Positions 5,935-7,023 of a stretch of DNA of 16,482 bases are shown in pieces; position 1 is the first letter of the stretch; each line of letters opens with the position of its first letter. The position numbers and the translations under genes are program-made. Source of the stretch: a virus (Duplodnaviria > Heunggongvirae > Uroviricota > Caudoviricetes); IMG/VR virus record IMGVR_UViG_2671180460_000014; one strand, 5' to 3'. The notes under the pieces are model-generated. The model was not told the DNA's origin. It worked only from the letters and a program-made list of their open reading frames with translations, and did no database searches.

Positions 5935-6462
5935 ATGGAACTCGTAAACGTTACGCGTTACTACCCTGAAGACATGCCTTATGGTGAAGGCATTCAGTAT
6001 TTCCGTAGTGAAGACGGGCAGGATTTTTATGAATCACTGGATAAATTCACGAAGAAATACAAGCTGTGCACGCATCCTGAAACCGGCGTTATTTATTCCA
6101 TGGCGGAAGATGTATCCCGTCTTTATCCCGTTGGTTTTACCATTGTGGAAGTGGATGAACTACCGGAAGGATTTTGTATTGAAGCCCGCTGGTATTATAA
6201 AGACGGTGAAGTACTGCCGGTCCCTGTTGACTACCGGCAGCAGGCAGAGTCGGAGCGTGCACGTCTTACTGCGATTGCCGAACGGGAAATATCCGATAAG
6301 AAGACGGATTTGCTGCTGGGAATACTCAGTGATGAGAAAAAAGAAATACTGAAACAATGGCGAGCATATATAATGGATTTAAAGGGTGTTGATTTAAATC
6401 ACATTTATGACAAAGCGACATACGATAGGATAAAATGGCCTTACGCGCCTGAAAGTGTATGA
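5935..6462 (+). CDS. Tail fibre assembly chaperone (Tfa / P2 gpG-like), copy A
   Basis: RBS AAGGAAA then ATG at 5935. C-terminal ...IKWPYAPESV is the typical Tfa C-terminus; immediately downstream of the fibre gene. Confidence 0.8.
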   Translation: MELVNVTRYYPEDMPYGEGIQYFRSEDGQDFYESLDKFTKKYKLCTHPETGVIYSMAEDVSRLYPVGFTIVEVDELPEGFCIEARWYYKDGEVLPVPVDYRQQAESERARLTAIAEREISDKKTDLLLGILSDEKKEILKQWRAYIMDLKGVDLNHIYDKATYDRIKWPYAPESV

Positions 6463-6489
6463 TACAGATTAAATATGGAAAGATGAAAT

Positions 6490-7023
6490 ATGCTGAATAT
6501 TAAAAATTTCAAACCTTACATACCAGAAAATACGGACACAGATGCATCCTACCTTATATCTGAAGATGGGCAGGACTGGTATGAGTGTCAGAAATTATTT
6601 TCTCCAGAAATGGTTAAAGTTGCTTATGATAACAATAATACAATAATCGGTTTTAGCCTGGATGTTTCAGCCTTGTTTCCTGTTAACGCAAGCGTGGCTG
6701 AAGTTGCTGCTAATGAAGTGCCAGAAGCGATGGTCTCTGCTGATGGTAACTGGCTTTATCTTGATGGAAAGATTGTACAGAAGTTAGTTGATTATCGACA
6801 GAAAGCAGAAGAGCATCGCCGCTGGTTGTATTCCCGTGCTGCAGATATCACTTCTGACTGGAAGGCTGAATTGATTCTTGAAATTATCAGGGATGATGAC
6901 AAAGAACAATTGAAGGCATGGCTGCTTTATGCTAGGGCTCTTAAATCGCTTGATTTCAGTCAGGTTACTGATGAATCATCTTATAATGCCATTGAGTGGC
7001 CAGTACCTCCACAGAACATCTGA
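6490..7023 (+). CDS. Tail fibre assembly chaperone (Tfa-like), copy B, tandem paralog
   Basis: Shares SEDGQD(W/F)YE, VDYRQ and C-terminal IEWPVPPQNI with copy A. Very AT-rich, about 35% GC in the first 110 nt by hand count. Confidence 0.8.
   Translation: MLNIKNFKPYIPENTDTDASYLISEDGQDWYECQKLFSPEMVKVAYDNNNTIIGFSLDVSALFPVNASVAEVAANEVPEAMVSADGNWLYLDGKIVQKLVDYRQKAEEHRRWLYSRAADITSDWKAELILEIIRDDDKEQLKAWLLYARALKSLDFSQVTDESSYNAIEWPVPPQNI

Follow-up and report, generated by a model that had tools for sequence, protein, structure and literature searches.

Downstream of the single tail fibre gene H of a phiP27-like Escherichia coli prophage, two tandem and divergent genes of the tail fibre assembly (Tfa) family, referred to here as A and B, are encoded on the same strand. 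Comparison of this locus with its relatives indicates that both genes encode complete Tfa proteins, that A is probably the cognate assembly chaperone of H and that purifying selection has preserved an intact B in its tandem position. The favoured explanation, to which we assign a probability of roughly 0.55, is that B is a resident chaperone which was retained after a cassette comprising the H tip and A entered the locus, and which would still act on the H-type tip.

Genomic context of the tandem

The DNA analysed (hereafter the window; 16,482 nt, IMG/VR record IMGVR_UViG_2671180460_000014) is the late region of the prophage, with lambda-type head-completion genes (FI, W-like) and a contractile tail of the P2 type. 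The genes are arranged in the order V, W (gp25), J, I, fibre H, the two Tfa genes, sheath, tube, tape measure, U, X, D, a Stf-like fibre gene, a DUF4376 gene and a truncated host ydfJ; the features relevant to this study are listed in Table 1. The insertion site of the prophage is ydfJ, the host flank being 98% identical to E. coli ydfJ. This flank (14978-16482) is a 5'-truncated copy of the gene, which encodes an MFS transporter, and belongs to a Qin-type attachment region; the annotation of related loci places a DinI-like remnant between ydfJ and the DUF4376 gene. Many E. coli genomes carry annotated members of this prophage family. With phage phiP27 the window prophage has a short part of the fibre gene in common. 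An Rfam scan of the whole window gave no match.

The sheath gene is the right-hand conserved anchor of the variable module that contains the fibre and Tfa genes. An ORF at 6996-8555 that overlaps B was dismissed as an artefact of the ORF caller, the sheath start being the ATG at 7080. On the other side of the module, the "tail protein I" gene of E. coli 401651 (9405-11990 of that locus) is annotated with a length of 2586 bp versus about 585 bp elsewhere, which suggests that this baseplate gene, located upstream of the fibre, has undergone a fusion or an insertion.

Table 1. Features of the fibre and Tfa region and of the prophage end; positions refer to the window.
Feature	Position	Strand	Size	Basis or remarks
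Tail fibre H	4695..5921	+	408 aa	PF12571, E = 2e-16; start per strain C5 annotation
H tip	5664..5921	+	last ~85 aa	motif ..SGILVQDTGRNSADNIGGVYYKQAQIYINGAWRSVSG; 77-100% identical ahead of A-type N-domains, 48-56% ahead of solo B-type Tfas
Tfa A	5935..6462	+	175 aa	PF02413, 65.3 bits; phrog_136; 5yvq_B, E = 8e-15
Tfa A, N-domain	~5935-6228			
Tfa A, helical C-domain	~6229-6462			
Recombinant patch	6099..6968	+	870 bp	3' two-thirds of A, spacer and nearly all of B; comparison with strain C5
A-B spacer	6463..6489	+	27 nt	weak GGAAAG Shine-Dalgarno for B; read from sequence
Tfa B	6490..7023	+	177 aa	PF02413, 78 bits, profile 1-131/131; 5yvq_B, E = 1.8e-17
Tfa B, N-domain	~6490-6789			
Tfa B, helical C-domain	~6790-7023			
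Terminator-like hairpin	7041..7068	+		AGACCGCC-TTTA-GGGCGGTTT plus T-run; sequence scan
Tail sheath gene	7080..8555	+	491 aa	PF04984 and PF17482; start from homologue annotations
Stf-like second fibre	12982..14406	+	474 aa	PF08400, E = 2.6e-56
DUF4376 protein	14414..14977	+	187 aa	PF14301, E = 1.5e-16

Tfa A and Tfa B are complete and divergent Tfa proteins

The presence of two tandem, divergent Tfa paralogs behind one fibre gene had been proposed from the nucleotide sequence (hereafter the original prediction), and the ORFs, their common strand and the upstream position of H were all as described. The pairwise alignment that had been suggested as a check (BLASTP) covered A and B over their full length with 35% identity (E = 3e-35). 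A and B were shown to be complete Tfa/Caudo_TAP proteins of the Mu U / P2 G family: both score well above the cut-off of 22.1 bits for PF02413 (Caudo_TAP), each covers phrog_136 end to end, and a custom HMM spans positions 1-178 in both. The PGAP (NCBI) annotation already calls them tail fiber assembly proteins. The possibility that one copy was a fragment devoid of C-terminal motifs is thus discarded, since both are full length and carry the motifs. The sequences quoted originally are present, SEDGQDFYE in A, SEDGQDWYE in B and VDYRQ in both, as is the C-terminal motif, although its "(I/K)EWP" form was slightly mis-stated and should read I(K/E)WPxxP (RIKWPYAP in A and AIEWPVPP in B). The AT-richness of the pair was likewise confirmed, with a GC content of 43.9% in A and 40.4% in B (GC3 34.8%) compared to 55.5% in the sheath gene; the 300-nt stretch 6350-6649 has a GC content of 0.333, and B is the gene with the lowest GC of the module.

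Two simple origins of the pair were considered and rejected. A recent tandem duplication does not agree with the lack of direct repeats, with a protein identity of 35% and with the closer similarity of each copy to relatives elsewhere; at the DNA level A and B do not share identity tracts. A remnant of an invertible segment is at odds with the location of both genes on the same strand, with the absence of inverted repeats (none of at least 14 nt in 4600-7300), with the absence of an alternative tip-coding ORF in the ORF list of the window and with the lack of an adjacent invertase.

Tfa A travels with the fibre tip

Fibre H combines a tail-collar N-terminus of the P2-H type (PF12571) with a C-terminal tip of the Mu-S type. 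Its C-terminal 59 residues match the tip of the "short tail fiber" 9cuy_c (E = 2e-15) and, weakly, the C-terminus of Mu S in 5yvq_A. H is the sole fibre gene directly upstream of both Tfa genes and its tip is the only one of the Mu-S type in the window. In phage Mu and in Pam3 (gp25) the Tfa proteins are modular, with a variable N-domain that binds the distal tip of the fibre and a conserved helical C-domain that oligomerises (PMC9608196). The H tip is presumed to be the docking site for the Tfa N-domain.

Tfa A begins 13 nt past H, on the same strand, preceded by the Shine-Dalgarno sequence AAGGA located 8 nt upstream, and its two-domain architecture was checked by sequence comparison alone (match to 5yvq_B). 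The segment 5175-6346, which includes the H tip and the N-domain of A, is 91.5% identical in a Mu-like prophage of strain A8 that has a single Tfa and otherwise resembles the window just at the Stf/ydfJ end. Among about 100 loci compared, A-type N-domains (at least 90% identity) are paired in at least 15 loci with tips 77-100% identical to that of H, and an H-like tip within this same range of identity is found wherever an A-type N-domain comes after the fibre; one type of exception was observed, in which just the terminal ~15 residues are kept. Other single-Tfa prophages have likewise received the A N-domain and the H tip together (91-100% identity), and the isolated phage Rac-SA53 carries an H-type tip with an A-type Tfa alone. 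As the A N-domain and the H tip travel as a single cassette, A is most probably the cognate assembly chaperone of H. An A-type Tfa alone accompanies the same H tip in A8, A10, C5 and Rac-SA53, which implies that B is dispensable for the assembly of H in some backgrounds at least.

The C-terminal tail of A (..IMDLKGVDLNHIYDKATYDRIKWPYAPESV; 6360-6462, the last ~35 codons) occurs in tandem lineages only, while solo A-type Tfas end in a common tail (..MDFS.I.DK.SYNAIEWP..). Such a distinctive end may serve to avoid recombination or hetero-oligomerisation with B.

Fold and relatives of Tfa B

The AlphaFold2 (AF2) model of Tfa B has a mean pLDDT of 93.2, with strands up to about residue 97 followed by helices at 102-129 and 135-152. 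In a Foldseek comparison the model matched Mu Tfa U (5yvq_B), the only solved member of the Tfa family (5YVQ; PMC9608196), with E = 1.2e-8 and, for the N-domain, a TM score of 0.81 and an rmsd of 2.2 A. B is thus predicted to adopt the two-domain Mu-U fold, in which a beta-sandwich at the N-terminus precedes the helices of the C-domain, and it has no extra domain beyond the canonical Tfa architecture.

The gene directly preceding B is A and not a fibre gene, so the partners of B were sought among its relatives. A search of 5.8 billion proteins returned 25 matches. Relatives about 52% identical to B are solo Tfas located directly behind fibres in three different tail backbones, and the last 70-85 residues of the fibres that precede solo B-type Tfas are 50-57% identical to the H tip, with which they have in common the core VQDTGxNSADNIGGxYY...NGxW (also written ..GI.VQDTG.NSADNIGG.YY...NG.W..). 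Judged from these associations, B-type N-domains appear normally to partner a sister version of the H tip, the association of B with H-type tips being visible at the clade level only. The best phage matches of B (43%) are the Tfas of Fels-2, SEN8 and SJ46, whose relatives in IMG/VR have a second Tfa on the opposite strand. A scan of GTDB genomes with B recovered distant relatives only, in Xenorhabdus, Citrobacter and Salmonella.

In Stx phages, fibre accessory proteins are found in which a B-type Tfa N-domain is fused to a DUF4376 C-domain. These proteins of 223-227 aa (L003, 4995-5666; P0015-P0019), encoded in Stx-type phages, have a complete B-type N-domain, about 50% identical over ~100 aa. 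DUF4376 thus seems to be a C-terminal module that fibre chaperones can use as an alternative.

Recombination within the tfa genes

The comparison with the prophage of strain C5 delimited the patch given in Table 1. The two prophages are ~98.8% identical across 1-6248 and 6844-13615 and show zero mismatches in 4986-6098 and 6969-7500, that is, on both sides of the patch. In place of the tandem, C5 has a single hybrid Tfa of 175 aa (L001, 10247-10774) in which the N-domain is A-type (97%) and the C-domain B-like (65%). The patch of the window is 93-100% identical to STEC316, whose backbone is ~70-90% identical. These comparisons show that the tandem was gained or collapsed via homologous recombination inside the tfa genes, C5 representing the collapsed state, and hence that the tandem and single states have been interconverted by this route. 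The trees of N- and C-domains disagree, which implies that C-domains have been shuffled independently of N-domains.

Between B and the sheath ATG lies a hairpin with a 9-bp stem (five GC pairs), kept in all lineages of the backbone whether they have one or two Tfas. Judging by its terminator-like sequence, this element would close the fibre operon and, as in P2, divide the tail genes between two transcription units. Together with the 3' end of tfa and the ribosome-binding site of the sheath gene, which are conserved in all lineages as well, it constitutes the right-hand anchor for recombination.

Frequency of the layout and comparison with known systems

A second Tfa is common in this family, nearly always inverted, and the same-strand tandem is rare. 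Out of 80 IMG/VR loci with the Tfa family, 38 have one Tfa and 39 have a second copy (full or partial) on the opposite strand, as is typical of invertible segments; one locus has a partial copy on the same strand and the two remaining ones have full co-oriented pairs, both orthologues of A-B. The tandem was detected in about 10 of the 218 complete E. coli genomes that carry the fibre family of the window. No specific report of tandem or double tfa genes was found in the literature.

The closest known arrangements are those of Mu S/U (5YVQ) and P2 H/G, in which a fibre gene (with a Mu-S-type tip in Mu) is likewise followed on the same strand by a two-domain Tfa of ~175 aa. The likeness to P2 extends to the tail-collar N-terminus of the fibre and to the gene order I-H-tfa and then sheath. 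The window differs from both in having two co-oriented Tfas per fibre gene rather than one per fibre variant, and its phage, phiP27-like with a lambda-type head, is no true relative of P2. Invertible segments (Mu G, P1 C, e14 P, Fels-2 type) also place a second, divergent Tfa next to the first; in the window, however, the two genes lie on the same strand, there is neither an alternative fibre C-terminus nor an adjacent invertase, and the terminator and the sheath gene come directly next. At the Z/fun hotspot of P2, exchange of tail fibre and tfa genes has been reported (bioRxiv 10.1101/2024.10.15.618418). The Z/fun slot of P2-like phages is similarly located between fibre/tfa and sheath, has low GC, undergoes cassette exchange and has a conserved right-hand anchor, but the extra gene in the window is another Tfa and not defence or toxin cargo. 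Finally, the DUF4376 proteins of Stx phages also join a tip-binding N-domain to an exchangeable C-domain; B differs from these fusions in its canonical helical C-domain, and the DUF4376 protein encoded in the window has an N-terminus that is unrelated. Altogether, the locus contains a known gene family at a known swap hotspot in an uncommon layout of well-known parts, and the region is the host-range module, neat but ordinary, of a temperate phage of the phiP27 type.

Maintenance of Tfa B

Three tandem lineages were available for comparison, the window together with L106-L113, STEC316, and STEC005 together with L021/L022. The A-B junction is homologous across all three, which indicates that the tandem arose once. 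In these lineages dN/dS (Nei-Gojobori) was 0.11-0.24 for B and 0.16-0.20 for A, although an appearance of constraint could also arise from recombination with functional solo alleles. The ORF is intact in seven of the eight distinct B alleles, across a dS of ~0.36; the remaining one, from L114, has a frameshift, and no fibre gene is called in that locus either. In a neutral simulation with 190 substitutions (dS 0.358, 531 nt) a stop-free ORF was retained in 0.3% of the trials (P = 0.003). This evidence shows that B is kept intact by purifying selection in the tandem position.

A second instance of the arrangement was found in contigs L101-L105, where a B-like protein (P0003, 62% identical) is the second of two co-oriented Tfas. 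Upstream of it are a Mu-S-like tip and a different first Tfa of 191 aa; downstream come a terminator and a Stf-like gene. In L102 this B-like copy has no obvious match to its neighbour, the tip upstream being of a different, Mu-S-like type. No longer contig for this second instance was recovered from E. coli genomes, IMG/VR or metagenome contigs. Neighbour-joining analysis of the N-domains groups the copies in second position together (100% bootstrap), with the solo B-type Tfas as their sister group.

These data bear on the idea, advanced in the original prediction, that one copy is an orphan from a past fibre swap. As to its origin the proposal is reasonable, given the mosaic, low-GC module at the swap site and the solo relatives of B that serve sister tips. 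As to its fate, B would be a functionless relic of the swap of tip and A, needed by nothing and heading for loss, and this we consider unlikely. It could be argued in its support that several prophages and one isolated phage use an H-type tip with an A-type Tfa alone, that the one difference between C5 and the window is a patch through which B is lost as a separate gene, that the tandem is infrequent among the E. coli genomes with this fibre family, and that B has one frameshifted allele, the lowest GC of the module and a weak Shine-Dalgarno sequence. Against it, B is full length, is predicted to have the Mu U fold and has a dN/dS as low as that of A; the ORF is open in seven of eight alleles against a neutral expectation of about 0.3%, the junction common to all tandem lineages denotes an old pair, and a related B-like gene has again been kept in second position in an unrelated context.

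A proposed function for Tfa B

Under the favoured explanation, H, A and B would be expressed from one late transcript ended by the terminator before the sheath gene, and A would dock on the H tip and nucleate trimerisation, as suggested by the Mu model and by the co-transfer of both sequences. The cassette comprising the H tip and A would have recombined in upstream of a resident B-type chaperone, at a hotspot for fibre/tfa swapping, and B would persist as an auxiliary or alternative chaperone, or as a cap, on the H-type tip and not on the Stf-like fibre. An action of B on the H tip is suggested by the clients of its clade, by the conservation of B and by the fact that no second Mu-S-type tip is encoded in the window.

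A different possibility is that B acts in trans, on H-sister-type fibres of co-resident or superinfecting phages, or that it is cargo of the slot between tfa and sheath. Several prophages with related tips are often present in one E. coli genome, this slot carries mixed cargo in P2-like phages, and B has the lowest GC of the module. A sigma-70-like match is present just upstream of B, at 6407-6436 inside the 3' end of A (ATGACA, an 18-nt spacer and TAAAAT; 10/12 positions). As an own promoter for B it was rejected, being neither above chance (two promoter-like matches found versus 4.3 expected) nor fully conserved (one -10 base differs in STEC316). Furthermore, the complete and canonical Tfa architecture of B, with no added domain, does not suggest cargo, and there is no terminator between A and B, which makes read-through from the fibre operon the simplest route of expression. 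Taken together, this evidence makes a role in trans or as cargo improbable.

It is also conceivable, as a speculation to which little weight is given, that the B lineage constitutes a dedicated "second-position" Tfa, a generalist or alternative cap made alongside the cognate chaperone, with which it would compete for the same tip. The monophyly of these N-domains behind two unrelated first Tfas, the tail of A that occurs exclusively in tandem lineages and the lack of DNA tracts common to A and B would fit such a role.

The Stf-like fibre and its presumed DUF4376 partner

The original prediction had also contemplated that the two Tfas serve different fibres, B being dedicated to the Stf-like fibre encoded downstream. 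The Stf-like and DUF4376 genes form a module at the end of the prophage, directly after gene D (12982-14977). The same module ends phiP27-like and Mu-like prophages with attachment sites at ydfJ, hya and ompW/yciE. The DUF4376 gene is always located directly behind the Stf-like gene (L002, L006, L017, L106-L109, L115 and L117) and its N-terminus co-varies with that gene; the DUF4376 protein is presumed to be a dedicated accessory of the Stf-like fibre. E. coli PapRG-04-4 (L115), with the same backbone, encodes a Stf 95% and a DUF4376 protein 88% identical to those of the window, and its sole Tfa (181 aa) belongs to an unrelated type and is paired with a different H tip; a B-type Tfa is absent. 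One Tfa together with a Stf-like fibre was also observed in L006, L017, L117 and Rac-SA53. The C-terminus of Stf (..GLFIRIA) is unrelated to tips of the Mu-S/H type, and these are the tips that B-type N-domains, DUF4376-fused ones included, always accompany. A division of labour in which A serves H and B serves the Stf-like fibre is therefore contradicted and very improbable, even though the window has two fibres and two chaperones if Tfa-family genes alone are counted, the B-like gene of L101-L105 lies immediately upstream of a Stf-like gene, and truncated Stf genes were seen in single-Tfa prophages among the first few phiP27-like loci examined.

The Stf-like fibre behind the second tandem (L101, 909-2735) has a long C-terminal domain that is unlike other Stf tips and may be enzymatic.

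Biological significance

Tfa chaperones decide the folding of engineered or swapped fibres of phages and tailocins, and rules on which N-domain accompanies which tip are therefore of practical use. In this regard, the relatives of the window provide a natural test set of near-isogenic prophages in which the same fibre is accompanied by A and B (window, L106-L110), by a hybrid of A and a B-like protein (C5) or by an A-type Tfa alone (A8, A10, Rac-SA53), and which also offers sister tips served by solo B-type Tfas. The locus documents in addition the shuffling of Tfa domains, as N-domains, C-domains and even DUF4376 C-domains have been exchanged at the anchor formed by the tfa 3' end and the terminator. 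If B were indeed a dedicated second-position Tfa, one fibre gene would give rise to A-capped and B-capped tips, and the phage may gain in this way a broader or bet-hedged host range without DNA inversion.
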